Of a DNA stretch of 64,000 nucleotides, positions 5,674 to 46,384 are shown in pieces; positions within the stretch are counted from its first letter, which is position 1, and every line of letters begins with the position of its first letter. Source of the stretch: Planctomycetota bacterium. Lineage in GTDB: Bacteria; Planctomycetota; UBA1135; GCA-002686595. The translations under genes and the position numbers were made by a program. Under the pieces are notes generated by a model. It saw only the letters and a program-made list of their open reading frames with translations. It was not told the DNA's origin and searched no databases. Location of the stretch: the NCBI GenBank assembly GCA_026692665.1, contig JAPLOF010000028.1:4708-68707 (forward strand), in the 5' to 3' direction.

Positions 5674-7056
5674 ATGACCGCAGTTGCACCGCCCCGCCTG
5701 CCCCTCGGCGGGATCGACCGTCTCCTCGCACGGATTTCGTACGGCTACGACCCGTGGCTGCGCGACCGCGCGCATTCCCTGGGCTGGACGGCGTTCCTCG
5801 AGGAGCAGCTCCACCCCGAGTCGTTCCCCGATCCGCGCGGGGACGCCGTCGTGGCGCGTTTCCCGACCCTGTCGATGACGCCGCGCCAGATCTGGGATGC
5901 GTACGGGGTCAACGGCCAGCACCAGGTCCCGATGGTGGAGCTGCAGACAGCGACGCTGCTGCGCGCAGCGCTGTCCCGCCGGCAGCTGCACGAGCGCATG
6001 GTCGAGTTCTGGGGCGACCACTTCAGCATCGACCAGAGCGATTCGCAGGCCTCGATCCTGAAGACGCAGGACGATCACGACGTCTGCCGCGCGCAGTCGC
6101 TCTCCAGCTTCCCGCTGATCCTGCGGGCGTCCGCGCGCAGCGCGGCGATGCTGTTCAGCCTCGGCAACTACCGCAGCATGGCGTCGTCGCCGAACGAGAA
6201 CTACGGCCGCGAGATCCTCGAGCTGCACTCGCTCGGAGTGGGCAACTACACCGAGCACGACGTGCGCGAGGCCGCGCGCTGCCTGACCGGCTGGGGTTTC
6301 CTCCAGTTCGGTGATCCGAACGCGGGCACCTTCCGCTTCGAGCCCAGCCTGCACGACAACGGGCCGAAGGACCTCCTCGGTCTCGCGATCCCCGCGGGCG
6401 GCGGCATCCTCGACGGCTACAAGCTGGTGCGCCTCGCCGCGCTCCATCCGGCCACGGCGCAGCGCATGTCGCGCAAGCTGTGTCGCTGGTTCCTGGGCGC
6501 GGAGCCGCAACCGGTCGTCGATGCCGCGAGCGCGGAGTGGGCCGCCACGGAGGGCGACCTGCGTTCCGTCCTGCGCATCGTCCTGGCGCCGAGTTCCTTC
6601 GCGTCGGTCCCGGAAGGCGTCCAGAAGACGAAGCGCCCGTTCCACCTGGCGGCGGGAATCCTGCGCGCACTGCCCTTCCAGTTCCCGAATCCGACCCAGC
6701 TGGCGGGGGAACTCGCCGCGATGGGGCATCGGCCGTTCCACTGGCCGGCTCCCGACGGATACCCGGACGCGGCTTCGGCCTGGGTCGGCGGCCTGCAAGG
6801 CCGCTGGTCCTTCGCTTCGCGCCTCTTCGCGAACCAGGTGTCCGGAGTCCGCATCGACGTGGCTGCCGTTTTCGGGACAGCGCCGAAGTCCAGCTGGGCG
6901 CGGCGTGCAGCGTACGCCCTGCGCGGTCCTGGGCCGCTCACGACCGACGTCGATGCCGTGCAGCAGTACGTGGACGGTTTCGCTTCGGCGAGCGATGCGT
7001 TGCGCGCCGAAACTCTGGCGCTCACGGCGTCGGCCCCGTCCTTCCAGGTGTACTGA
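5674..7056 (+). CDS. DUF1800 family protein
   Basis: ATG 5674 (MTAVAPPRLPLGG..). Typical DUF1800 stretches are present (MVEFWGDHFS, ENYGREILELHSLGVGNYTEHDVREAARCLTGWGF). It is followed by its usual DUF1501 partner. Confidence 0.8.
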   Translation: MTAVAPPRLPLGGIDRLLARISYGYDPWLRDRAHSLGWTAFLEEQLHPESFPDPRGDAVVARFPTLSMTPRQIWDAYGVNGQHQVPMVELQTATLLRAALSRRQLHERMVEFWGDHFSIDQSDSQASILKTQDDHDVCRAQSLSSFPLILRASARSAAMLFSLGNYRSMASSPNENYGREILELHSLGVGNYTEHDVREAARCLTGWGFLQFGDPNAGTFRFEPSLHDNGPKDLLGLAIPAGGGILDGYKLVRLAALHPATAQRMSRKLCRWFLGAEPQPVVDAASAEWAATEGDLRSVLRIVLAPSSFASVPEGVQKTKRPFHLAAGILRALPFQFPNPTQLAGELAAMGHRPFHWPAPDGYPDAASAWVGGLQGRWSFASRLFANQVSGVRIDVAAVFGTAPKSSWARRAAYALRGPGPLTTDVDAVQQYVDGFASASDALRAETLALTASAPSFQVY

Positions 7057-32763: not shown

Positions 32764-35700
32764 TCACTCCGCCTTCGGGGCTTCGGCGTGCTCGCGCCCC
32801 GCGGCGAGTCCCGGTAACGCGCTCGCGTCCCAGCCTCCGCCGAGCGCGCGGACGAGCAGGACCGCGTTCACGAAGCGTCGGCCCTGGAGTTGCGCGTAGG
32901 CACGTTCGGCCGCGAGACGGGCACGGGCGCCGTCGACGACGTCGAGGAAGCTGACGAAGCCCGCGTTGAAGCGCGTGAGAGAGAGGTCGGCGACGCGTTT
33001 CGCGGCGACCGTCGCGCGTTCTTGGGCCACTGCCTGCTCGGACAGGAGCTTCGTCGCGGTCAGGGCGTCCTGCACCTCGCGGAACGCGACGAGGACCCGC
33101 TGGCGGTAGAGCTCGACGCCCTCGTCGTACGCCGCGCGCGCGCGCGCCTCGTCGGCTTCGAGACGTCCGCCCTGGAAGATCGGGATCGAGATCGAGGGTG
33201 CGAGGCTCCAGATGCGGCTGTCGATCTCGAACAGGTCGTCGATCTCGCCGCTCTGGAGGCCGGCGCTGCCCGTCAGGCGGATGCTCGGGAAGTAGGCCGC
33301 CTCGGCGACGCCGATCCGGGCGTTGCGCGCGGCGAGCTCGCGCTCGGCCTGCGCGACGTCGGGGCGTCGCTCGAGCAGCTCGCTGGGCAGGCCGGCCGGG
33401 ATCTCGGGCGGTTCCGCGGCGAGCCACGCGCCGACGTCGATGTCGAACGAGCTCGGGGGCTCGCCCGCCAGCACGGCCAGCGCATTGCGCAGGGCGGACC
33501 GTTGCCGCGAGACTTCGGACAGGTCGACCTCCGCGCTCGCGAGCTCCGTCTCGACGCGCGCGAGGTCGAGCTCGTTCGACGTTCCGGCCTCGACGCGCGA
33601 GCGGACGATGTCGAACGCGTTTCGCCGCACCTCGACCGACCGGTTCAGTACGGAGACTTCCGTCTCGAGCGCACGCAGGGAGAACCAGCTCGCGGCGACT
33701 TCGGCCTGGATCGAGAGGCGCAGCGATTCGTACGCGGCGGCCAGCGCGTCGGTCTCTCGCTCGCCAGCCTCGACGGCGCGACGCACGCGGCCCCACAGGT
33801 CGATCTCCCACGAGAGATCGATCGGCACGCGAATGTCCGAGATCGTCGCGGACGAGAAGGGGAGTCCCGCGTTGGGCGAGTACTCGGTGCGCGTCCACGT
33901 CGGGTTCGCTGTCACGCTCGGGTACAGCGCGGAGCGGACGGCCTTGGTCGAGGCGAGTGCTTGCTCGATGCGCGACAACGCGGCCTTCAGGTCGTGGTTC
34001 TCGGCGGCGACGCGCTCCTGGAGCGCGTCGAGACCCGGGTCGCCGAAGAGCTTCCACCATGCGCCGCGCGGGATCGCTTCCGGCGCCGGCTCGGAGCCGG
34101 TGGGCGCATCGCGCCAGGTGTTCGCGGAGGGGGTCTCCGGTCGGACGTAATCGGGGCCGACGGCCGCGCAGCCCGCGAGCAGGAGGATCGGCGCGAGGAG
34201 GAGCGCTGCCGCGTGTCCGCCGGCGGCCTTCAGGCCGTGGCCACCGGCTCCGTGATCGGGAGTCGGCTCGGCATCGTGCTTCGGTGCCTGCGCGCGCTTC
34301 CAGCCGATGCGCAGGAGCAGCGCGTAGAAGAGCGGCGTCAGGAACAGGCCGAAGTTCGTCACGCCGATCATCCCGGCGAACACGGCGACGCCCATGGCGC
34401 GGCGCATCTCGGAGCCCGCGCCCGTGCTGACGACGAGCGGGAAGACGCCCGCGATGAACGCGATGCTCGTCATGAGGATCGGGCGCAGGCGCAGCTTGGA
34501 CGCCTCCACCGCGGCGGAAGCCGGATCCAGGCCCTCGTCCTGCTTCACCTTGGCGAACTCGACGATCAGGATCGCGTTCTTCGCCGCCAGGCCGATCAGG
34601 ACGATCAGGCCGATCTGCGTGAACACGTTGTTGTCGCCGCCGGTGAAGTACACGCCGGCCATCGCCGAGAGCAGCGACATGGGGACGATCAGGAGGATCG
34701 CGAGCGGCATCCGGAAGCTCTCGTACTGCGCGGCCAGCACGAGGAACACGAGCAGGATGCACAGCGGGAACACGTAGATCGCCGAGTTGCCCGCCAGGAT
34801 CTTCTGGTAGGTGAGGTCGGTCCACTCGTACTTCATGCCCGGCGGGAGGTTCTCCTCGGCGAGCTTCGCCATCGCGGACTCGGCCTGGCCCGAGCTGTAT
34901 CCAGGGCCGGGCGCGCCCAGGATCTCGGCCGCGGGATAGCCGTTGTACCGGCTGGCGCGGTCGGGTCCGTACGACTCGCGGACCTCGACGAGTGTCCCGA
35001 GCGGGACCATCTGTCCGCGCTCGTTGCGCACCTTGAGGCGCGTGATGTCCGACGCCTCGTCGCGGAACTGCGCGTCGGCCTGCGCGACCACCTTGTAGGT
35101 CCGACCGAACCGGTTGAAGTCGTTGACGTAGACCGATCCGAGGTTCACCTGCATCGCGTCGAAGACGCTCTGCAGCGGGACGCCCTGCGTCTTGGCCTTC
35201 TCGCGGTCGACGTCGGCCTCGAGCTGCGGGACGTTGACCTGGAAGCTCGAGAGCCCGCCGGAGAGCTCGGGGTTCTGCGCCATCCGCCCGATGAGGCCCC
35301 AGGTCGCCGCGAAGAGCGCGTCGTGGCCGGCGTCCGCGCGATCCTCGACGAACAGCTTGAAGCCTCCCACGGTGCCCAGCCCGTTCACGGGCGGCGGGGG
35401 GAAGATCGCGACGTACGCGTCCTGGATCGCGGCGAACTTCTGGTTCAGGGCGCCCGCGATCGCGAGTCCGCCGAGCTCGGGCGTCTTCCGCTTCTCGAAC
35501 GGATCGAGCGTGACGAAGACGATCCCGGCATTCGCGCTGACCGTGAAACCGTTGATCGACAGGCCGGGAAACGCCACGCACGACTCGACGCCGGGATGGG
35601 CGAGCGCGATCTCCGACATCCGGCGGATCACGGCGTCCGAGCGGTCGAGCGAGGATGCGTCGGGAAGCTGCGCGAACGCCACGAGGTACTGCTTGTCCTG

Positions 35701-37422
35701 CGTCGGGACGAATCCCGTGGGGACGCGCTGGAAGACCCACCACGTCGCTCCGATCAGGCCGGCGTACACGACGAGCGCGACGATCGCGATGCGGATGACG
35801 CCGGCCACCGCGCGGCCGTACAGGGCCGAGCCGCGCTCGAAGATCCAGTTGAAGGGTCGGAAGATCCAGCCGAACAGGAAGTCGATCGCCTTCGTCACGA
35901 CGTCCTTCTTCGCGCCGTGCGGCTGGAGCAGGAGCGCGCTGAGCGCCGGCGAGAGCGTCAGCGAGTTGAACGCGCTGATGACCGTCGAGATCGCGATGGT
36001 GATCGCGAACTGCTTGTAGAACTGGCCGGTCAGCCCGCTGATGAACGCGGTCGGGATGAACACGGCCGACAGCACCAGCGCGGTCGCGATGATCGGCCCC
36101 GTGACCTCGGTCATGGCCTTCTTCGTGGCCTCGACCGGAGACAGGCCGTTCCGGATGTTCCGTTCGACGTTCTCGACGACGACGATCGCATCGTCGACGA
36201 CGATGCCGATCGCGAGCACGAGCCCGAAGAGGGACAGGGCGTTGATCCCGAAACCCAGCGCGTTCATGACCGCGAAGGTCCCGACCAGGGACACGGGCAC
36301 GGCCGCCAGGGGGATGAGGCTCGCCCGCCAGGTCTGGAGGAACAGGACGACGACGAGCACGACCAGCAGGATGGCCTCGATCAGCGTCACGACGACCGCG
36401 TCGATCGAGTGCTGCACGAACACCGTCGGGTCGTAGACGATGCGGTACTCGAGGCCGGCGGGGAAGTTCGACTTCAGGGCCTCCATCGCCGCGTGGACGT
36501 TGGCGGAGATCTCGATCGCGTTGCTGCCCGGCAGCTGGAAGATCGGGATGCCCACCGCCTGCTGGTTGTCGAGCAGCGAGCGCAGGGCGTAGTCGCCTGC
36601 TCCGAGCTCGATGCGCGCGACGTGCTTCAGCAGCACCTTCTCGCCGTTCGGGCCCTGCTTGACGACGATGTCGCCGAACTCCTCCTCGTCGACGAGGCGG
36701 CCTTTCGCGCTGAGCTGCAGCTCGAAGTCGACGGCGCCCGCCGTGGGTTGCTGTCCGATCGCGCCGGCGGCCACCTGCACGTTCTGCTCGCGGATCGCCG
36801 CCACGATGTCGCCGGCGGTCAGGCCGCGCGCCGCGACCTTCTCGGGGTCCAGCCACACGCGCATCGCGTAGTCGCCGCCGCCGAAGATCTCGACGGCGCC
36901 GACTCCGGGCAGGCGCGCCAGCACGTCCTTCACCTGCAGCGACGCGTAGTTGCGCAGGTAGATCTCGTCGTATCGCCCGTCGGGCGACAGGAGGTGCACG
37001 ACGAGGGTGAGGTCGGGCGACTGCTTGACCGTCGTCACGCCCAGGCGCCGCACGTCCTCGGGCAGCTTGGGCAGCGCCTGACTGACGCGGTTCTGCACCT
37101 GGACCTGGGCCTGGTCCACGTCGGTGCCGAGCTTGAAGGTGACCGTCAGCGTCATCACGCCGTCCGAGGTCGCCTGCGAGAACATGTAGATCGAGTTCTC
37201 GACCCCGTTGATCGCCTGCTCGAGCGGTGCGGCCACCGTCTCGGAGATCGTCTTCGGATTCGCGCCCGGGTAGGCGGCGCGGACGACCACGGTGGGCGGC
37301 GTGACCTCCGGATACTCGCTGATGGGCAGGCGGCCCATCGCGAGGAGGCCGAGCAGGAGGATCAGCAGGCTGAGGACGCCGGCGAAGATCGGGCGTCGGA
37401 TGAAGAAGTGCGAGAAGTTCAT
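32764..37422 (-). CDS. RND (HAE1) multidrug efflux permease fused in frame to a NodT-type outer-membrane factor lipoprotein
   Basis: One uninterrupted 1552-aa ORF. Residues 1 to ~1045 are AcrB-like (MNFSHFFIRRPIFAGVL.., 12 TM). Residues ~1064-1085 form a lipoprotein signal (LKAAGGHAAALLLAPILLLAGC, Cys codon at 34168-34170). The remainder is a NodT family OMF (CAAVGPDYVRPE...). There is no stop and no in-frame ATG/GTG/TTG at the junction. Confidence 0.8.
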   Translation of the reverse strand: MNFSHFFIRRPIFAGVLSLLILLLGLLAMGRLPISEYPEVTPPTVVVRAAYPGANPKTISETVAAPLEQAINGVENSIYMFSQATSDGVMTLTVTFKLGTDVDQAQVQVQNRVSQALPKLPEDVRRLGVTTVKQSPDLTLVVHLLSPDGRYDEIYLRNYASLQVKDVLARLPGVGAVEIFGGGDYAMRVWLDPEKVAARGLTAGDIVAAIREQNVQVAAGAIGQQPTAGAVDFELQLSAKGRLVDEEEFGDIVVKQGPNGEKVLLKHVARIELGAGDYALRSLLDNQQAVGIPIFQLPGSNAIEISANVHAAMEALKSNFPAGLEYRIVYDPTVFVQHSIDAVVVTLIEAILLVVLVVVLFLQTWRASLIPLAAVPVSLVGTFAVMNALGFGINALSLFGLVLAIGIVVDDAIVVVENVERNIRNGLSPVEATKKAMTEVTGPIIATALVLSAVFIPTAFISGLTGQFYKQFAITIAISTVISAFNSLTLSPALSALLLQPHGAKKDVVTKAIDFLFGWIFRPFNWIFERGSALYGRAVAGVIRIAIVALVVYAGLIGATWWVFQRVPTGFVPTQDKQYLVAFAQLPDASSLDRSDAVIRRMSEIALAHPGVESCVAFPGLSINGFTVSANAGIVFVTLDPFEKRKTPELGGLAIAGALNQKFAAIQDAYVAIFPPPPVNGLGTVGGFKLFVEDRADAGHDALFAATWGLIGRMAQNPELSGGLSSFQVNVPQLEADVDREKAKTQGVPLQSVFDAMQVNLGSVYVNDFNRFGRTYKVVAQADAQFRDEASDITRLKVRNERGQMVPLGTLVEVRESYGPDRASRYNGYPAAEILGAPGPGYSSGQAESAMAKLAEENLPPGMKYEWTDLTYQKILAGNSAIYVFPLCILLVFLVLAAQYESFRMPLAILLIVPMSLLSAMAGVYFTGGDNNVFTQIGLIVLIGLAAKNAILIVEFAKVKQDEGLDPASAAVEASKLRLRPILMTSIAFIAGVFPLVVSTGAGSEMRRAMGVAVFAGMIGVTNFGLFLTPLFYALLLRIGWKRAQAPKHDAEPTPDHGAGGHGLKAAGGHAAALLLAPILLLAGCAAVGPDYVRPETPSANTWRDAPTGSEPAPEAIPRGAWWKLFGDPGLDALQERVAAENHDLKAALSRIEQALASTKAVRSALYPSVTANPTWTRTEYSPNAGLPFSSATISDIRVPIDLSWEIDLWGRVRRAVEAGERETDALAAAYESLRLSIQAEVAASWFSLRALETEVSVLNRSVEVRRNAFDIVRSRVEAGTSNELDLARVETELASAEVDLSEVSRQRSALRNALAVLAGEPPSSFDIDVGAWLAAEPPEIPAGLPSELLERRPDVAQAERELAARNARIGVAEAAYFPSIRLTGSAGLQSGEIDDLFEIDSRIWSLAPSISIPIFQGGRLEADEARARAAYDEGVELYRQRVLVAFREVQDALTATKLLSEQAVAQERATVAAKRVADLSLTRFNAGFVSFLDVVDGARARLAAERAYAQLQGRRFVNAVLLVRALGGGWDASALPGLAAGREHAEAPKAE

Positions 37423-37444: not shown

Positions 37445-38620
37445 TCAGCGGCCTTCGGGCTTCGGCTGCGCGTGTTCCGGCGTGACCGGAGTTCCGGGGC
37501 GGATGCGCTGGAGGCCGTTCACGACGATCTGTTCGCCGGCGCTCAACCCCGTGCGCACGATGCGCAACCCGTCCACGACGGGGCCCAGCGTGATCGCGCG
37601 GTACTGCGCGACGTTGTCGGCCCCCACGACGTACACGAACTTCTGCGACTGGTCCGTGCCGATCGCGCGTTGGTTCACGAGCACGGTCGGCTGCTTGGCC
37701 GTCGTGGGCATGCGCACGCGCGCGAACAGGCCCGGGAGGAGGATCCCGTCGTGGTTCGGCACCTGGACGCGCATCAGGATCGACCCGGTGCCCGTGTCGA
37801 GCCGGTTGCCCAGCGACTCGACGACGCCCGCGCGCGGGAATCCGTCCTCGTCGGCCAGCCCGACCTCGACCTGCACGCGGCCCTCCGCGTCGTGGGGGAG
37901 CTCGTTGGCCCGCATGAGCCTCTGGAGGTGCAGCAGCGAGTTCTCGTCGACGTCGACGTACACGAAGATCGGGTCGACCGACACGATCGTGGTGAGCAGC
38001 GTGTTCGCGCTGGGGATGCCGCTGACGAAGTTCCCGGGCGTCACGAGGGCGCGGCTCACGCGCCCGTCGACGGGCGCGACGATGCGCGTGTATTCGACGT
38101 CGAGCCGCGCCAGGTCGCGCGCCGCCTCGGCCGACAGGAGTGCCGCGCGCGCTTCCGCCTGCCGGGCCGTGCGGCCCTCCGCCTCCTCGATCGAGATCGC
38201 GCGGGCCTCGAGCAACTGGGCCGAGCGCGCCGCCTCGCGGTCGGCGGTGTCGAGCTTCACCCGCGCCTGGACGATCTGGGCCTCCGCCGCGGCGAGGTTG
38301 GCGCGGTAGTAGCGCGCGTCGATCGTGAAGAGCGGGTCACCGCGCTTCACGAGCTGGCCGCTCCGGAAATGCACCTCGTCGACGTGGCCGCTGACGCGCG
38401 GCCGGATCTCGACGTCGTCGACCGCCCCGAGGCGCCCGGTGAACTCGGTCGTCTCGGCGATCTCTCGTCCCTCCGCCGGGGCGATGGTGACGGCGGGCGG
38501 CGGGGCCTGCGGCGCCGAGGCCGGAGCCGCTTCCGAGCCGGACTTCCCGCGCTGGATCAGGAAGGCAGCCCCCGCGGCGACGGCGAGGACGATCAGGACG
38601 GTCAGAGTGCGGGACTTCAT
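37445..38620 (-). CDS. RND efflux periplasmic adaptor (membrane fusion protein)
   Basis: Signal anchor MKSRTLTVLIVLAVAAGAAFL, with the alpha-hairpin, lipoyl and beta-barrel pattern (IRPRVSGHVDEVHFRSGQLVKRGDPLFTID.., YTRIVAPVDGRVS). It lies 22 nt upstream of the RND gene. Confidence 0.9.
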   Translation of the reverse strand: MKSRTLTVLIVLAVAAGAAFLIQRGKSGSEAAPASAPQAPPPAVTIAPAEGREIAETTEFTGRLGAVDDVEIRPRVSGHVDEVHFRSGQLVKRGDPLFTIDARYYRANLAAAEAQIVQARVKLDTADREAARSAQLLEARAISIEEAEGRTARQAEARAALLSAEAARDLARLDVEYTRIVAPVDGRVSRALVTPGNFVSGIPSANTLLTTIVSVDPIFVYVDVDENSLLHLQRLMRANELPHDAEGRVQVEVGLADEDGFPRAGVVESLGNRLDTGTGSILMRVQVPNHDGILLPGLFARVRMPTTAKQPTVLVNQRAIGTDQSQKFVYVVGADNVAQYRAITLGPVVDGLRIVRTGLSAGEQIVVNGLQRIRPGTPVTPEHAQPKPEGR

Positions 38621-38701: not shown

Positions 38702-39307
38702 TCAGACGCGCTGGGGCGCCGGAAGAGCCTCGAGCACCTGCTCGCGCAGGCCGCGCAGGACCTCGGGATCGTTCGCGACCTTGGCGTGGACCATCAGGCC
38801 GAGCGCGAGCGCGTGGAGCGCACGGGCCTTCGCCGCAGGGTTCGCGACGGTCAGGGATCCGTCCTTCTGGGCGTCGCGCAGAGTGCGCTCGATCTGGAAG
38901 AGCCCGCGCTCGAGCAGGTCCTCGACCTTGCGGCGCAGGCGCTCGTTCTGGGTCCCCATCTCGGACCCGATGGATGCGAAAGGGCAGCCTGGAACGTGTC
39001 CAGAGGCCTGAAACCGCGCTTTCTGTTCCTGGTAGATCGCGTCGCACCAGGCCTCGAGCCGCTCGAGCGGCGCCCGGTCGGGATGGAAGACGCGGTCGAG
39101 GATCGGCTGGAGATCGCGCTGCCAGTGCTCCTCGCAGGCCGCGACCGCCAACTCCTCCTTGGAAGGGAAGAAGTGGTAGAAGCTGCCCTTCTTCACCCCC
39201 GCGGCCGTGCAGATGTCGTCGACGCTCACGGATCCGTAGCTGCTCGTCCAGATCCGGTCGAGCGCGGCGGAGAGGAGCCTGTCGCGCGTGTCGGAGGGTC
39301 GTGTCAT
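38702..39307 (-). CDS. TetR/AcrR family transcriptional regulator
   Basis: ATG 39307 (MTRPSDTRDRLLSAALDRIWTSSYGSVSVDDICTAAGVKKGSFYHFFPSKEEL is the TetR HTH), 201 aa. It heads the efflux operon. Confidence 0.88.
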   Translation of the reverse strand: MTRPSDTRDRLLSAALDRIWTSSYGSVSVDDICTAAGVKKGSFYHFFPSKEELAVAACEEHWQRDLQPILDRVFHPDRAPLERLEAWCDAIYQEQKARFQASGHVPGCPFASIGSEMGTQNERLRRKVEDLLERGLFQIERTLRDAQKDGSLTVANPAAKARALHALALGLMVHAKVANDPEVLRGLREQVLEALPAPQRV

Positions 39308-39825
39308 GGGGTCCAGGAAGGGCTGGCTGCGTGCCGCACCGGGCACGTCGAGGGCCCGGGAGTCTATCCGAGTGGACCGATCGGTCAAGTCGCTTTCCAG
39401 GCGCGAACCGGGGATCCGGCGCGGGCGCGGAAAGGGTCCCGGCGGACGCGGGAACCGGGGGGGGGCCGCCCCGATCCCCAGGCTGCGGCGGGCGGATTCG
39501 AGCTCGGCTTGCTCGGCCGTCACCCGCGTCCGCCCTTTCGCCGCGCGCGACCGGATGCCAGCTCGGTTTTCGCCAGCCGGCCGTCACGCGCCGGTCTCCG
39601 CGCGGCGGCGGATCCGGACGCGCGCTCGCCGCCGCGCCCGCGGCATCGCCCTCCATCGCCTTGGATTCACCTGGGCGAATTGGTATTCCGCATTCGAAGC
39701 CGCGTCCGAGGGGGACGCTCCGCGTCGCGCCGATCCCGGCGGCGGAGCTCAGCGCGCGCACCGGGCCAAACGCCCGCGCGACGCTCCCCAGACGCTGCTC
39801 GAGGCCGAGGCATCGACGGGGGGGC

Positions 39826-42615
39826 ATGGGACGCAAGCGCAAGGCCGACGAAGAGGCCGACGAACTCGAATTCGACGCACCGCGCGCGGGGACTCGCTCC
39901 ACGGGGCGATGGAACCGCTCCGCCGGTGGCGCGCGGACCGAGAAGAGCTCCGCGCTCGGCACTCGCTGGCGCGAGGTCGCGCGCGGATTCCTGTTCGGCA
40001 AGGAGGTCGACGAAGCGACGAGCTCGCGTCTGCGCGAGATCAGCGGCATCGCCATGGTCGGCTTCGCGGCGTTCCTGATGCTGGCGCTCGCGACGTACGC
40101 GACGCCGTTCGATGATCCCGCCCACCGGAGCTGGAACTGGGCCGGGCAGGTGGGCTTCTACCTCGCGAACGGCGTCAAGATCGCGCTCGGCAACGCGGGC
40201 TTCTTCGTCGTGTTCCTCGTGGGCGCGTGGGGGCTCGTCCTGATCGGCGGACGGTCGGTCTCCTTCGTGTCCCTGCGCGTATTCGGCGCGATCCTGTTCC
40301 TGTTCTCGTTCGCGTTCCTGCTGCAGCACATCGCCGGTCCCGCCGTGGCGGACGTCGGCGCCGGTTACGACAGCCGCATCGCGCCCTACGGCCCGGGCGG
40401 CTGGCTCGCGCTGACCTGGAATCCGTTCCTGGTCGAGAAGTTCGGGAACCTGGGCCTGTTCCTGCTGCTCGTCCTCACCTCGCTCGTGTCGTTCCTCCTG
40501 GCGACCGAGATCGCGTTCCTCTCGGTCCTGAAGAGCTTCGGCGCGTGGCTGGACAAGCGTCGCGAGATCCGCGGCGAGAGCCTGCCGTCGGCCGTCTTCG
40601 GTTACCTGCGCTCGACCGTGTCGGGCCTGTGGTCCTTCGTGCGCGGAGAAGACCTGCGCGGCCGCCTGGCAGCCGAGGGCGGAGCGGTCGTGCTCGACGA
40701 ACCGTCCGCGCTCGTCGACCAGAAACCCCAGCGCAAGCCGCGCGCGAAGAAGGAGCCCGACCCGGAGAACCCGGACGGCCTGCCCGAACTCGACGAGGAC
40801 GACCTCGAGGACGATTTCGAGGAGGAGCTCGAGGAGGACGCCGAGTACGGCGAGGACCTCGACGAGGCGACGCTGGCCGAGCTCGAGGCCGAGGAACGCG
40901 CCGAACTCGCCGCCGCGGGCCTGCTCGAGGAAGCGGAGGAGTCCGACGAGGACGAACCCGCCGAGGACGAGGAGGCAGAGGGCACCGTGCTCGTCCCGCC
41001 TCCCGCCGCGGCCACGTCGAAGCCGACGCCCGTGAAGGCCAAGGTCGCGCAGATGGTCTTCGACCCGCCGACGCCGCCGCCGGGTCCGTGGACGTTCCCG
41101 CCGATCGAGCTGCTCCTGCCGCCCGAGGGGAACCTGGGCCACGACGACAAGGCTCTCGAGGAGTCCGCCGCGAAGCTCGAGAACGCGCTCCGGAGCTTCC
41201 GCGTCGACGCGCAGGTCGTGTCGGCGCAGGTCGGGCCGGCGGTCACGCTGTTCGAGTTGACCGTCGCGCAGGGCACGCGCATGAACAAGGTCTCCACGCT
41301 CAGCCAGGAGATCGCCGCGGCGCTGCGCGCGCAGTCCGTCCGCGTCATCGCGCCCATCCCGGGCCGCGACACGATCGGCGTGGAGGTCCCGAACCTGAAG
41401 CGCCGCGTCGTGCGCATCAGCGAGCTCGTCAGCCAGAAGGCCTACGACCCGAAGTACATGGGTCTGCCGCTCTTCGTGGGCATGGACGCCGAAGGCCGAC
41501 CGATCGTCGAGGACCTGGCGAAGATGCCGCACCTCCTGATCGCCGGCACGACCGGCTCGGGCAAGTCGGTGTGCATCAACACGATCCTCGCGAGCCTCCT
41601 GCTCACGCGGTCGCCGCACGACGTCAAGCTGATCCTGATCGACCCGAAGATGGTCGAGCTGCAGGCCTTCGCGACCGTGCCGCACATGATGTGTCCGGTC
41701 GTGACGGACGCGCGGCAGGCGACGGGCGTCCTCCTGTGGGCCGTCGAGAAGATGGAGGGGCGGTACGAGCTCTTCAAATCGGCCGCGGTCAAGAACGTCA
41801 AGGGCTACAACGCCCTGGGCGAGGAGGGTCTCAAGAAGGTCCTCGGCGACGACTTCGACCCGGAGCGCACGCCGCGCCACCTGCCCTACATCGTGGTCGT
41901 CATCGACGAGTTCGCCGACCTCATGGCGGTCTCGAAGAAGGAAGCCGAGCTGGCCATCACGCGCCTGGCGCAGAAGTCGCGCGCGGCGGGGATCCACGTG
42001 ATCGTCGCGACGCAGCGCCCCTCGACCGACGTCATCACCGGCGTCATCAAGGGCAACCTGCCGACGCGCATCGCGTTCCAGGTCGCGAGCCGCGTCGACA
42101 GCCGGGTCATCCTGGACGAGACGGGCGCCGACAAGCTGCTCGGCTACGGCGACATGCTCTTCATGCCGCCCGGCGGCGGGAAGCTGAAGCGCGTCCAGGG
42201 CGCGATGGTCGAGGACTCCGAGATCACGAAGCTCGTCGAGTTCGTGTCGTCCACCTCGGCGCCGAACTTCAGCCAGGAGCTCATTCAGGTCGCGACGGGC
42301 GAAGCGCGCCCGACCGGCGGCGGGCTCGTCGACGGCGAAGCCGACGAGGACCCGCTCTTCGACGAAGCCGTGCGCGTGGTGCTGAAGAGCAAGCGTGGCT
42401 CGGCTTCCTTGCTGCAGCGCGCGATGGGCGTCGGTTACACGCGCGCCTCGCGCCTCATCGACCTGATGAGCGAGCGCGGCATCCTGGGGCCCCACAAGGG
42501 CAGCAAGGTGCGCGACATCCTGGTCACGTTGGAACAGTGGGAAGAGCTACACGGCCCTTCCCCCGCTGGAAGCGGCGGAGCCTCGGAACGCACGGGAGCA
42601 ATGAACGATGACTGA
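39826..42615 (+). CDS. ftsK: DNA translocase FtsK
   Basis: ATG 39826 (MGRKRKADEE..). It has an N-terminal 4-TM domain, an acidic linker, a motor with Walker A (GTTGSGKS) and Walker B (VVVIDEFADL), and a C-terminal gamma winged helix (SASLLQRAMGVGYTRASRLIDLMSERGILGP). The track start at 38974 is antisense to the TetR gene. Confidence 0.93.
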   Translation: MGRKRKADEEADELEFDAPRAGTRSTGRWNRSAGGARTEKSSALGTRWREVARGFLFGKEVDEATSSRLREISGIAMVGFAAFLMLALATYATPFDDPAHRSWNWAGQVGFYLANGVKIALGNAGFFVVFLVGAWGLVLIGGRSVSFVSLRVFGAILFLFSFAFLLQHIAGPAVADVGAGYDSRIAPYGPGGWLALTWNPFLVEKFGNLGLFLLLVLTSLVSFLLATEIAFLSVLKSFGAWLDKRREIRGESLPSAVFGYLRSTVSGLWSFVRGEDLRGRLAAEGGAVVLDEPSALVDQKPQRKPRAKKEPDPENPDGLPELDEDDLEDDFEEELEEDAEYGEDLDEATLAELEAEERAELAAAGLLEEAEESDEDEPAEDEEAEGTVLVPPPAAATSKPTPVKAKVAQMVFDPPTPPPGPWTFPPIELLLPPEGNLGHDDKALEESAAKLENALRSFRVDAQVVSAQVGPAVTLFELTVAQGTRMNKVSTLSQEIAAALRAQSVRVIAPIPGRDTIGVEVPNLKRRVVRISELVSQKAYDPKYMGLPLFVGMDAEGRPIVEDLAKMPHLLIAGTTGSGKSVCINTILASLLLTRSPHDVKLILIDPKMVELQAFATVPHMMCPVVTDARQATGVLLWAVEKMEGRYELFKSAAVKNVKGYNALGEEGLKKVLGDDFDPERTPRHLPYIVVVIDEFADLMAVSKKEAELAITRLAQKSRAAGIHVIVATQRPSTDVITGVIKGNLPTRIAFQVASRVDSRVILDETGADKLLGYGDMLFMPPGGGKLKRVQGAMVEDSEITKLVEFVSSTSAPNFSQELIQVATGEARPTGGGLVDGEADEDPLFDEAVRVVLKSKRGSASLLQRAMGVGYTRASRLIDLMSERGILGPHKGSKVRDILVTLEQWEELHGPSPAGSGGASERTGAMNDD

Positions 42616-44599
42616 GCGGAAATCCCTGTCCGGGGGTGATTGGCTGGCGATCGGCACGTTCCTCGTCGGGACACTCGTGGCGGTGCTGATGGCCTACGGG
42701 TTGTGGACCGGGGCCGGCGGCGCGGCCGGGACCGGAGCGATGGCGGCGGCGATCGCCGGGGCGGTCGGTCCCTGGCCCGCGCTGATCGGCGGGGCGGGCA
42801 TCGCGCTCCTCGGAGCGCGCGGCTTCCTGACCGGCGAGCGCGCCGGCCTGCTCGCGGGTGTCCTGGGCGTGCTCGGCGTGGCGGCGGGACTCTCGGTCGT
42901 CGCGGGCGCGCTGTCCGAGCTGCGCGGCGGATCGTTCGGCGCCGGGACCGGAGGCCGCATCGCGGAGATGGCGCACCCGGCCGTGGGCGTGCTGCTCGGC
43001 GCGATCGTCGCGTTCGGAGCGGCCTACTTCGCCTGGATGCGCGAGGATCCGGCCGCCGCGGCTCGGCTCGCGCCCGCGCGCCGACTGACGCCCGCGCCGC
43101 CGAAGAGCGACGACGGCGTGACGGCGGCCGAGTCCGCGATGCTCTTCCCCGCCGAGGAGGACGAGCTCTCGCCCGCGCGCCCCATCCCGCCGCCGGCGAA
43201 GCCCGTCAAGCCGCTCTATCCCGAAGACGTGCGCCTGAAGGGCGAGGTGCCGGCGGGCGCGAAGCCGCTCACGCCGCCGATGGCCTACTCCGACGCGCCG
43301 GCGATCCCGGTGGTCCCCGAGCCGGCGGTCTACCGTTGGACGGCGCCGCGCGCCGCCGCGGATCCGACGCGCATCGCGCCCGAGGAAATCGAAGCGCTGG
43401 CCGACACCGAACCTTCGAGCCCGGCGTTCACGCCGTCCGCCGCGGTCGATGCGAACGCGGACGCCGCGGAGGAGGTCGAGGAGCGCCCGATGCCGCCGCG
43501 CCCGACCTGGGAAACCACGGGACTGACCGAGGACGACGAGCCCGTCGACGCCTACGGCACGCCGCTCTCGCTGGTCGAGAAGGCGCGTCGCGATCGCGAC
43601 GAGGTCGAGGACGAGGTCCGCGAGGTCGAGCCCGTCGTCGCCGCGCGGATCCCGCGCGAGATCGGCGAGGTCGACCCGGATGCGCTCGCCGGGGATCGCC
43701 TCGAGGACGAGGAGCAGGACGAGGACGAACCGCTCGTCGTCGCGGACGTGGTCGTGATCGAGGTGGAAGAGGATCTCGCGGCCGCTGGCAAGGCGGAAGC
43801 CGAGCCCGCCGTCCTCACCGTCTCGGACGAAGCCGCCGCGCGGAGCGAGGTCTCGGCACTCCTCGCGCAGCAGGAATCGCTGCTCCAGGAGCTGCGCGCG
43901 AACAACGCCGCCCTGCGCGCCGACCAGGACGTGCAGGACGAGTACGACGAGATCGAGGCCGAGGTCGTGTCCGCTTCGTCGGAGGTCGAGCCGGTCGCCG
44001 TGCTGGAGGCGGCGTTCGACGAGGAGCTCCTGGACGAAGAGGACGAGGTCGAGGAAGAGGTCCTCGAGGTCGTCTCCGTCAGCGTCTCCGAAGGCGAGCT
44101 CGAGGACGAGGCCGAGGAGGCCTTCGAGCTCGAGGAGGAGACCGAACCCGCGCAAGCGGAAGTCGCTCCGGTGCCGGAGCCCGAGCCGGAAGAGGCCGAC
44201 GAGCCCGCGCCCGTGGTCGCCGCGGCGCCGGTCGCGGCCCCGCGCGCGAAGGTCGCGGTCGCCGCTCCGAGCCTCTTCGACGCCGTCGAGACCGAGCCGC
44301 AGGTCGTCCTGCAGCCCCAGGCCGCCGTTCCCGCATCGCGCGCCACGAAGGCGCCCGGCCGCGGCATCGATCCGGAGAAGAAGCTGCTCGTCGAGGTCGG
44401 TTGCATGTTCGTCGAGCGCGGCCGCGTCGCGGTGTCGATGCTGCAGCGCCAGTACGACATGGACTTCGACCAGGCCTGCCGCGTGCTCGACGACCTGCAG
44501 GAGATGGGCCTGATCGGTCCGTACATGGGCGGGAAGAACCGCGAGATCCTGCTCTCGAAGGACCAGTGGCTGGAGAAGGTCGGCGCGGCCGTCGACTGA
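42608..44599 (+). CDS. FtsK-like protein lacking the motor: N-terminal multi-TM region, long acidic linker, C-terminal FtsK-gamma domain
   Basis: ATG 42608 overlaps the ftsK stop by 8 nt. There are 4-5 Gly/Ala-rich TM helices (aa ~10-150), then a ~400-aa Pro/Glu/Asp-rich region. The last ~70 aa (LLVEVGCMFVERGRVAVSMLQRQYDMDFDQACRVLDDLQEMGLIGPYMGGKNREILL) match the FtsK gamma wHTH. No Walker motifs. Confidence 0.7.
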   Translation: MTERKSLSGGDWLAIGTFLVGTLVAVLMAYGLWTGAGGAAGTGAMAAAIAGAVGPWPALIGGAGIALLGARGFLTGERAGLLAGVLGVLGVAAGLSVVAGALSELRGGSFGAGTGGRIAEMAHPAVGVLLGAIVAFGAAYFAWMREDPAAAARLAPARRLTPAPPKSDDGVTAAESAMLFPAEEDELSPARPIPPPAKPVKPLYPEDVRLKGEVPAGAKPLTPPMAYSDAPAIPVVPEPAVYRWTAPRAAADPTRIAPEEIEALADTEPSSPAFTPSAAVDANADAAEEVEERPMPPRPTWETTGLTEDDEPVDAYGTPLSLVEKARRDRDEVEDEVREVEPVVAARIPREIGEVDPDALAGDRLEDEEQDEDEPLVVADVVVIEVEEDLAAAGKAEAEPAVLTVSDEAAARSEVSALLAQQESLLQELRANNAALRADQDVQDEYDEIEAEVVSASSEVEPVAVLEAAFDEELLDEEDEVEEEVLEVVSVSVSEGELEDEAEEAFELEEETEPAQAEVAPVPEPEPEEADEPAPVVAAAPVAAPRAKVAVAAPSLFDAVETEPQVVLQPQAAVPASRATKAPGRGIDPEKKLLVEVGCMFVERGRVAVSMLQRQYDMDFDQACRVLDDLQEMGLIGPYMGGKNREILLSKDQWLEKVGAAVD

Positions 44600-44786: not shown

Positions 44787-45464
44787 ATGCACGTCGTCAG
44801 CGCGCTCCTGGCCGGGACTCCCGGCCTCTCCCACGCGTTCGGCACGCGCAGCGAGCCCATCCCCGAGCCGTTCCTCGCCGACTGGCCCGAGCGTTTCCCG
44901 GCCTGGAAGCAGGTGCACGGCGTCCGGATCGCCGAGGCGCGAGCCGCCCGCGAGGACCTCGGCGAGTGCGACGGGATCGTGTGCTTCGCCCCCGGTCCGC
45001 CGATCGCCGTCACGAGCGCCGATTGCGTGCCGATCCTCGCTGCCCGTCGTGACGGCCGTGCCGTCGCCGCGCTCCACTCGGGTTGGCGCGGCACGTTGGC
45101 GGGAGCGAGCACCGCGCTCGTGCGCGAGCTCGTCCGGCGCGGCGAGGATCCGTCGCGCTGGAGCGCCGCTGTCGGTCCCGCGATCGGTCCCTGCTGCTAC
45201 GAAGTCAGCGTCGAGCTGGCTCGGGATTTCGAGCGCGAGTTCGCACCGATGGGGGACTCGTTCGCCGTCCCCGCCGAGCGTCGGCTCGACCTTCCGGCGA
45301 TCAACGCCTGGCAACTGCGGGACTCCGGGATGGGCGAAGTCGAGATCCTGCGCGCCTGCACGCGTTGCGCGGCGGACGAGTTCGGGAATCCGCTCTACGC
45401 CAGCTATCGCCGCGAAGGCCGCGGGCTGCAACAGCGCTCCGTGATCGTCGCCACCTCGATGTGA
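44787..45464 (+). CDS. pgeF: peptidoglycan editing factor PgeF (YfiH/DUF152, purine nucleoside phosphorylase/laccase-domain family)
   Basis: Motifs are SADCVPI, LHSGWRGT, GPAIGPCCYEV and SYRREG. Confidence 0.85.
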   Translation: MHVVSALLAGTPGLSHAFGTRSEPIPEPFLADWPERFPAWKQVHGVRIAEARAAREDLGECDGIVCFAPGPPIAVTSADCVPILAARRDGRAVAALHSGWRGTLAGASTALVRELVRRGEDPSRWSAAVGPAIGPCCYEVSVELARDFEREFAPMGDSFAVPAERRLDLPAINAWQLRDSGMGEVEILRACTRCAADEFGNPLYASYRREGRGLQQRSVIVATSM

Positions 45465-45688
45465 CGGGAGCACGCCGGCTCGTTCGCGGACCGCGGACTC
45501 GCACTCACGGTCGCTGCATGAGCGCAAGGACCCGATCGCCGTGCGGATTCCGCCGTGGGCATGGCGCGCATCGGCGATCCGCCAGCCCCGATCTCGTAGA
45601 CTCCCGCGGCCGACCGGGGCCCACTCCGCTTCGCGGGCGATCGGCCGGTCGCCGTACACCCGCCGCTCGTAGAAGGACATCTCGCTCC

Positions 45689-46036
45689 ATGGATAAGCTC
45701 GCAGTCGTCGCCCAGGTCGTCATCGCCGTGTCGGTCCTGTACGTGTGGGTCTTCCGCTACGACAACATCGTCAAGGAGTTCCGCGAGTACGGGTTGTCGG
45801 ACCTGTTCCGCTCCATGGTCGGCGCGGCGAAGATCGCGCTGTCGACCCTGTTGCTCGCGGGCATCTGGTATCCCCAACTCGTGCTCGTCCCGGCGCTCGC
45901 CATGGCGGCGCTGATGGCCGGCGCGCAGGCTTCGCACTTCAAGGTGCGGCATCCGTTTCCCGCCTTCGTGCCTTCGCTGGTCCTGCTGCTCCTCTCCCTC
46001 TTCGTCGCTGCCGTGCGCGCGGGACTGATCGCCTGA
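45689..46036 (+). CDS. DoxX-like small membrane protein
   Basis: ATG 45689, 115 aa, four hydrophobic helices, with the DoxX-like motif FREYGLSDLFRSMVGAAKIALSTLLLAG. Confidence 0.6.
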   Translation: MDKLAVVAQVVIAVSVLYVWVFRYDNIVKEFREYGLSDLFRSMVGAAKIALSTLLLAGIWYPQLVLVPALAMAALMAGAQASHFKVRHPFPAFVPSLVLLLLSLFVAAVRAGLIA

Positions 46037-46384
46037 TTGGAGCTGCGAACTCTCCTCGTCGTCGGATCCAGCCTGGCGTTCCTCGGTTACGGCGTTCACT
46101 GCCTGCGGTCCGACTCGATGCGCAGCGAGTTCGCCCGCTACGGCCTGGCGCACCTGCGCGTGCTGACCGGCGTGCTCGAAATCCTCGCCGGAGCGGGACT
46201 GCTCGTCGGCCTCTACTGGCCGCTCGCGCTGCAGGTCTCGTCCGGCGGGCTCGCGCTGCTGATGCTCTTCGCGCTCCTGGCGCGGATCCGTGTCCGCGAC
46301 GCCGTCCTGCTGTGGCTGCCGGCATTCACGCTCTTCGTGGTCAACGGGTACATCCTCCTGGATTCGTTGGGCACGCTCGGCTGA
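46037..46384 (+). CDS. DoxX-like small membrane protein (tandem paralog)
   Basis: TTG 46037 immediately follows the TGA of the previous gene. 115 aa with the same architecture (FARYGLAHLRVLTGVLEILAGAGLLVG). The start codon is uncertain. Confidence 0.55.
   Translation: MELRTLLVVGSSLAFLGYGVHCLRSDSMRSEFARYGLAHLRVLTGVLEILAGAGLLVGLYWPLALQVSSGGLALLMLFALLARIRVRDAVLLWLPAFTLFVVNGYILLDSLGTLG

Follow-up and report, generated by a model that had tools for sequence, protein, structure and literature searches.

What a protein made of the two ends of FtsK, and lacking the DNA-pumping motor, might do in a cell is the question raised by a gene that directly follows ftsK in a 64,000-nt stretch of Planctomycetota DNA (assembly GCA_026692665.1, contig JAPLOF010000028.1, positions 4,708 to 68,707 of the forward strand; hereafter the window, whose numbering is used throughout). 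The genome is a metagenome-assembled genome (MAG) of 4.58 Mb, probably derived from a freshwater metagenome; it is 90% complete, and no FtsZ was detected in it. The gene encodes a motor-less paralog of FtsK, and the reading that we favor, and regard as rather probable, is that this paralog serves FtsK, in a lineage without FtsZ, as a membrane adaptor or regulator, binding proteins and not acting as a DNA reader. No description of a motor-less FtsK paralog in Planctomycetota was found in the literature. New here are the link to two cultured species, counts across the order, the conservation of the 8-nt overlap with ftsK, four linker motifs, the loop comparison, the selection profile and a misannotation in public records. 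The genes concerned are the following.

39826..42615, + strand: ftsK, a complete DNA translocase with 4TM, alpha, motor and gamma domains (Pfam)
42608..42615, + strand: 8-nt overlap of the paralog ATG with the ftsK TGA (direct reading of the sequence)
42608..44599, + strand: motor-less FtsK paralog (P0001), 663 amino acids (aa), ATG start

The 663-aa open reading frame (ORF) begins 8 nt before the ftsK stop codon, as a preliminary description of this DNA had stated: the ATG is at 42608 and the ftsK TGA ends at 42615. A GGGAG sequence lies 9 nt 5' to the ATG, and the overlapping arrangement suggests that translation of the paralog is coupled to that of ftsK. The G+C content of third codon positions (GC3) is 0.91-0.94 in the paralog frame from start to stop, and second-position G+C is lowest in the same frame. 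Thus, the whole ORF is coding, in a single frame and with no frameshift. The upstream protein matches FtsK_4TM (3.9e-13), FtsK_alpha (7e-29), FtsK_SpoIIIE (2e-57) and FtsK_gamma (5e-23); the earlier observation that it has kept a gamma domain of its own is therefore correct, and it contains the only FtsK motor in the genome. We infer its start to be at 39826 (MGRKRK); GC3 climbs from about this position. The ftsK frame is also open for 284 codons 5' to the likely start (38974-39825, + strand), overlapping a divergent TetR gene. This stretch is an artefact of GC-rich DNA, and automatic gene calling might overextend ftsK because of it (1213 aa for the open frame).

The absence of a motor from the paralog, asserted previously on inspection, was borne out by every search made. 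No match to PF01580, FtsK_alpha or an NCBIfam translocase model was obtained at E<=0.1, and a regular-expression search revealed neither a Walker A nor a Walker B motif. NCBIfam recognized nothing over the whole protein, and Pfam recognized FtsK_gamma only. Since it has no alpha/beta (RecA-like) domain and no Walker motifs, the paralog cannot translocate DNA, and it lacks the RecA-like motor (PF01580) that defines the FtsK/SpoIIIE translocases. Public records do not reflect this. The ortholog in the cultured species Engelhardtia mirabilis Pla133 (P0059, 922 aa; QDU69686.1 / WP_419191888.1; L045 4045-6810, - strand; NZ_CP036287) is named 'DNA translocase FtsK' by NCBI, while Pfam finds gamma only. 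The label was acquired by annotation transfer, and a search by keyword would miss the family on account of it; the misnaming of motor-less proteins in this way is an annotation problem in its own right.

The C-terminal end of the paralog is a gamma domain, in agreement with the preliminary description, whose quoted C-terminal sequence was found in the translation. Two features are needed here.

44372..44593, + strand: FtsK gamma-type winged helix, aa 589-662 (Pfam PF09397, phmmer, fold)
44447..44473, + strand: loop between helix 2 and helix 3, RQYDMDFDQ, aa 614-622 (aligned to E. coli FtsK 1289-1297, RQFRIGYNR)

Residues 591-649 match Pfam FtsK_gamma (PF09397) with an E value of 1.2e-11 and 44.6 bits, above the cut-off of 30.6, and phmmer matches this region to the solved gamma domains of E. 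coli and P. aeruginosa (2J5P, 5DCF and 2VE8). The full-length AlphaFold model contains a confident winged helix at 589-662, for which the best fold match of 48,161 chains in the Protein Data Bank (PDB) was 2ve8_A, the P. aeruginosa FtsK gamma domain (Z 8.4, 66 of 67 residues aligned). Identity to the gamma domain of the neighboring FtsK is 39%.

The fold is thus retained, and the question becomes what its surface can bind. In E. coli FtsK, residues 1289-1297 (RQFRIGYNR) form the helix 2-helix 3 surface that contacts XerD, and the same region of gamma binds KOPS (FtsK-orienting polar sequences) DNA (PMC5052618). Among 68 family members the corresponding loop of the paralogs has the consensus RQYxM[DE]F[DE]x. 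The R1289 position (R614 here) is R in 60 and K in the other 8; the G1294 position is D or E in 67, and the N1296 position in 61, while the R1297 position is basic in none. The loop RxxG[IV]GYTR of the adjacent FtsK, by comparison, is kept in all 16 genomes compared. Of the canonical KOPS/XerD loop type, RxxxIGY[NT]R, which is basic or neutral, the paralog retains the first Arg alone. Positions N1296, R1300 and E1303 were reportedly identified as KOPS-blind by Sivanathan in 2006; we take their counterparts in the paralog to be D621, R625 and D628. R625 is variable in the family, and D628 is Asp in every member.

These observations bear on the earlier proposal that the paralog is a division-site DNA tether, in which a membrane-anchored gamma domain would bind chromosomal DNA, at KOPS-like or other sequences, and so hold or sense it at the closing septum without pumping. 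The winged-helix fold is present, as this would require; an Arg in the wing (R645) is invariant in the alignments; and two paralogs from outside family f1 (G264 and G064) have a basic, FtsK-like loop. However, the subfamily loop carries two or three acidic residues, with no basic residue at the R1297 position, and the domain has a net charge of about -2 and sits on a tether of charge -61 that should repel DNA. An acidic loop on such a tether argues against sequence-reading DNA binding, and hence against the DNA tether, which we consider unlikely. The gamma head of the subfamily has probably been repurposed away from DNA reading, and regulation of FtsK appears, as judged from these sequences, the better explanation.

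A second possibility suggested by the loop is that the gamma-like head regulates Xer recombination independently of any motor, contacting a XerD-like recombinase through its retained Arg, and either activating dimer resolution at the membrane or acting as a decoy for the gamma domain of FtsK. R1289 is the key XerD contact in E. coli, and the nine residues 1289-1297, fused to XerC, suffice to activate recombination (PMC5052618). The near-universal Arg or Lys at the R614 position, described above, and the XerC-like and XerD-like pair encoded in the genome agree with this idea. Against it, the remainder of the nine-residue activating peptide is altered, and the XerD-like protein has ER, rather than EE, at the positions of E183/E184. 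Covariation of the acidic loop with this site was looked for across five families and rejected: the residues are ER, GR, AP, ER and DV, with no pattern linked to the paralog. Since the site varies in this fashion, the E. coli interface is not transferable, and a role as a Xer regulator seems to us improbable.

The N-terminal end of the paralog was examined by modeling, fold searches and profile comparison.

42608..43057, + strand: N-terminal membrane domain, aa 1-150 (AlphaFold, fold matches, hhalign, hydropathy)

AlphaFold places four long hydrophobic helices at 9-34, 42-75, 81-102 and 108-144, with pLDDT above 90 and in agreement with hydropathy, and the model of residues 1-150 has a predicted local distance difference test score (pLDDT) of 88.8 and a predicted template modeling score (pTM) of 0.80. 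When this model was used to search the Swiss-Prot set of the AlphaFold database, the best 30 matches were all N-termini of FtsK or SpoIIIE, which upholds the FtsK-like membrane helices of the preliminary description. In the ESM Atlas, all 10 of the family sets listed carry FtsK domains, 6 of them listing FtsK_4TM, with template modeling (TM) scores by query of 0.61-0.70. On the evidence of the models, the predicted domain clearly has the FtsK 4TM fold. By sequence it is more distant; the Pfam FtsK_4TM profile (PF13491), proposed earlier as a check, gave no match to the N-terminus. Transitive profile comparison with hhalign nevertheless supports homology to FtsK 4TM: the subfamily N-domain aligned with motor-less paralogs from outside f1 at 94.5% probability (E 8e-8), and the N-domains of the latter aligned with FtsK 4TM at 97.2% probability (E 4e-11). 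The non-f1 paralogs also have sub-threshold matches to PF13491 (E 0.0005-0.006). The distribution of charge fits a topology in which both the N- and the C-terminus would be cytoplasmic.

Between the two domains lies the acidic, low-complexity middle reported before; the acidic runs quoted at that time were found, and the net charge of its polyanionic stretch (aa 336-560) is -61. Apart from one helix (405-458), this region is disordered in the model, and it carries a series of short linear motifs.

43109..43150, + strand: linear motif 1, DDGVTAAE[AS]AxLxP, aa 168-181 (alignment A1)
43211..43270, + strand: linear motif 2, PxYPEDVRLKGExPxGxxPL, aa 202-221 (alignment A1)
43328..43351, + strand: linear motif 3, VYRWTAPR, aa 241-248 (consensus of alignments A1 and A3)
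43493..43582, + strand: linear motif 4, PPRPxWExTGLxEDDEPVDAYGTPLSLVE, aa 296-325 (alignments A1 and A3)
43613..44287, + strand: polyanionic, length-variable disordered linker, aa 336-560 (composition, ratio of nonsynonymous to synonymous substitution rates, pLDDT, alignment indels)
43820..43981, + strand: predicted long single helix within the linker, aa 405-458 (pLDDT 83-93)
44297..44320, + strand: motif VVLQPQAA, aa 564-571, just 5' to gamma (alignments A1 and A3)

The linker motifs remain unchanged throughout a set of at least 52 sequences. G170, V171, E175 and L179 of motif 1 are invariant in alignment A1, as are P202, Y204, P205, D207, V208, R209, G212, P215, G217 and P220 of motif 2. 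P299 of motif 4 is invariant in both A1 and A3, W301 and E302 show no variation in A1 and are almost invariant in A3, and E311-P319 are nearly invariant; a short helix (320-336) is predicted after this motif, with pLDDT of about 75 at 310-330. Near gamma, P570 is invariant, and E563 and L568 are nearly so. A six-frame regular-expression scan of all 64 contigs for the linker motifs, as docking motifs shared with other genes, found them in the paralog gene only. The polyanionic linker, 32% of whose residues are Asp or Glu, has pLDDT below 50 except for one helix, and the alignment shows many insertions and deletions in it. The helix, 54 residues long, is present only in P0001, P0007-9, P0013 and P0015, which are the closest relatives, and may be a lineage-specific coiled-coil insertion.

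Whether the gene is maintained at all had to be considered, since the decay of a duplicated ftsK, or the mis-calling of an ORF, might give rise to a similar arrangement; GC-rich genomes yield many long spurious ORFs. For gamma, the ratio of nonsynonymous to synonymous substitution rates (dN/dS) between congeners was 0.08-0.30, and for the N-domain it was 0.34-0.45; values were about 0.5 in the motif region and rose to about 1 (0.7-1.0) in the acidic linker. From this regional pattern we conclude that the paralog is a gene under selection and no remnant. In two MAG orthologs, G256 and G240, a single frameshift each occurs inside the low-complexity linker, which might be taken for decay. The frame switches at oriented positions ~6405-6814 of locus L035 (G256) and at ~5720 of L041 (G240), and in both loci the coding signal carries on in the new frame; these switches are probably assembly errors in repetitive acidic sequence. 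Against decay or mis-calling stand the codon-position signal, in frame along the whole paralog, the purifying selection on both end domains, the invariant linker motifs, and the persistence of the family in 278 clusters at 50% identity with conserved position and start overlap. The remnant explanation, including the disrupted-frame pseudogene that had been named as the alternative at the outset, is effectively refuted and retains almost no probability.

A search for homologs gave 57 proteins of the same architecture, all matching PF09397 only, the named ones being from Planctomycetota MAGs. When 1.84 billion representatives were searched with a profile of the N-domain and motifs, 278 clusters (50% identity) were obtained, of which 149 scored E<=1e-30; among the matches listed, the alignments begin within the first 64 residues of the protein. 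Run on 401 genomes sampled from the phylum, the N-terminal profile detected the gene in all 12 other members of the family to which the window belongs in the Genome Taxonomy Database (GTDB), and in essentially nothing else. A survey of relatives for an ftsK and gamma-only gene pair, as had been recommended, found ftsK directly 5' to the paralog in 13 of 13 genomes of the GTDB family. The overlap is exactly 8 nt in 10 of these (nine as tabulated, plus G208 with its start set at MSDRDPQ, where it had been tabulated at -119), and the other three have spacings of -1, +5 and +15 nt. When 80 species-representative loci were examined with their flanks, 19 ended at a contig edge before the ftsK position; in all 61 with enough flank, an ftsK motor was directly upstream.

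Across the same order, a scan for gamma domains showed two in 53 of 71 genomes, and in approximately 42 of the 53 the second, weaker gamma lies 1.2-2.8 kb downstream of that of ftsK on the same strand. Five examples from outside family f1 all have a 4TM-like domain, an acidic linker and gamma without a motor, and three of them adjoin ftsK. The pair is also present in two families outside the order. In the simplest history, which is also the most likely one, ftsK was duplicated in tandem and one copy then lost its motor. A tree of gamma (68 columns) supports an f1-type clade at 97/93, and is compatible with one origin of all motor-less paralogs as well as with several (p-AU, from the approximately unbiased test, 0.49). 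Fusion with FtsK by programmed frameshift was considered and rejected: members outside f1 have a gap of 87-159 nt after ftsK, and the f4 gene is not adjacent. The genes usually found downstream of the paralog in other members are rimO/miaB-like radical SAM, pgsA and pgpA. In family f2 it is followed by a dnaB-like gene, as judged by the N-terminal sequence (L031 6773-8140 in G157, L033 5567-6943 in G119).

Among cultured species, two were found to have the gene behind ftsK: Engelhardtia mirabilis Pla133 (G397), of the same family as the window, and Rohdeia mirabilis Pla163. Both are members of the 'Saltatorellus' clade, whose cells are shape-shifting, lack FtsZ and use both budding and binary fission (10.1101/817700); the preprint describing Saltatorellota makes no mention of FtsK (10.1101/817700). 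In Planctopirus (P. limnophila), ftsK is the one essential gene of the division and cell wall (dcw) cluster, and it is reported as the sole dcw gene that is both essential there and conserved across the Planctomycetes-Verrucomicrobia-Chlamydiae (PVC) superphylum (PMC12283558). For the FtsZ-less division of Planctomycetota the paralog provides a concrete candidate partner, being a further membrane protein derived from FtsK, with putative translational coupling to ftsK and conservation throughout the order, and the two cultured carriers make the candidate testable.

For the adaptor or regulator that we favor, the following course may be envisaged. A tandem duplication of ftsK and subsequent loss of the motor would have yielded the paralog, which would be produced alongside FtsK, translational coupling fixing the proportion of the two. 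The protein would reside in the cytoplasmic membrane, its N- and C-terminal ends both cytoplasmic, and at the division site it would associate with FtsK by way of the 4TM domains, which are related in the two proteins. Its linear motifs and gamma-like head would then bind protein partners, without reading DNA. A gamma head that is conserved must have a ligand, and the simplest candidate is a protein.

Several points weigh against this proposal. RNA runs were sought for the window and for the Engelhardtia locus, and none was listed. The association with FtsK through 4TM domains is suggested by homology and gene linkage only; direct hhalign comparison of the subfamily N-domain with FtsK 4TM was not significant (probability 8%), and profile matches between membrane helices can be inflated by composition. 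R645, together with R625 in helix 3, could still permit non-specific contact with DNA. The basic loop of G264 and G064 is canonical in appearance, so the probable loss of DNA reading would apply to proteins of the f1 and f2 types and may not hold for the wider family. Finally, all 15 genomes of family f3 of the order show one gamma only, and in family f4 the second gamma lies away from ftsK; thus, coupling to ftsK is not obligatory. It should also be noted that the paralog might have a more structural part, as a stoichiometric subunit of a mixed FtsK/paralog membrane ring that replaces the FtsZ-dependent scaffold, with the linker motifs recruiting constriction or envelope machinery. We assign this version a low likelihood. 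If true, the paralog would belong, as a lineage-specific component, to the core of FtsZ-independent division in the Saltatorellus clade and in Planctomycetota related to it.

Other genes of the window lie on either side of the pair.

44787..45464, + strand: Cu-oxidase_4 family gene (PgeF/YfiH/YlmD-like), downstream of the paralog and co-oriented with it (Pfam 4.8e-41)

The Cu-oxidase_4 neighbor is not conserved outside near relatives. Downstream of this PgeF-like gene, two DoxX_2 family ORFs are adjacent, back to back, at 45083-46384 (+ strand). On the other side, a single ORF of 1552 aa (32764-37422, - strand) combines a complete AcrB-type resistance-nodulation-division (RND) permease (ACR_tran, residues 3-1036) with an outer-membrane factor (OEP, from about residue 1131). 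An HlyD-type adaptor (37445-38620) and a TetR regulator (38702-39523), both on the - strand, lie between this ORF and ftsK, and the whole block is divergent from ftsK.

When the paralog is compared with known systems, its closest likeness is to FtsK itself, as found in E. coli, in P. aeruginosa and immediately upstream in the window. The predicted 4TM anchor fold, the long disordered linker, the gamma winged helix and the Arg equivalent to R1289 are common to both. The paralog differs in lacking alpha/beta and the Walker motifs, in its acidified loop, in its four family-specific linker motifs, and in an N-domain that is too diverged for Pfam FtsK_4TM. A second FtsK-derived paralog exists in Bacillus subtilis, where SftA, a soluble FtsK-like translocase with motor and gamma and no membrane anchor, divides the labor with the main translocase. 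The truncation there is reciprocal to that of the planctomycete protein, which has anchor and gamma and no motor.

Parts of FtsK are able to act without the pump. In E. coli, according to the account given in PMC12283558, the N-terminal domain together with the linker is reported to be sufficient for cell division (Draper 1998, Dubarry 2010). The paralog resembles this motor-free combination of membrane domain and linker, but it is a separate natural gene beside a full FtsK, it has a gamma head, and its lineage is without FtsZ, FtsA and most divisome partners. At the other end of the molecule, XerC/D-gamma fusions and the nine-residue gamma peptide demonstrate that the gamma surface can act on XerD without a pump (PMC5052618), and two reports describe XafT of the TLC phage as an unrelated factor that acts on XerD in the same pump-free manner (PMC6744903, PMC9226527). 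At eight of the nine peptide positions the E. coli residue is not kept, R614 and Q615 being excepted in the 663-aa protein, and an activation of XerD by the paralog would be hypothetical. A comparable cellular context is that of Chlamydia trachomatis, another member of the PVC group, for which one study presents FtsK as a divisome organizer in an FtsZ-less bacterium (PMC11975371). The chlamydial protein is a full-length FtsK, and the abstract describes no motor-less paralog; what the two systems would share is an FtsZ-less setting in which FtsK-type membrane proteins nucleate division.

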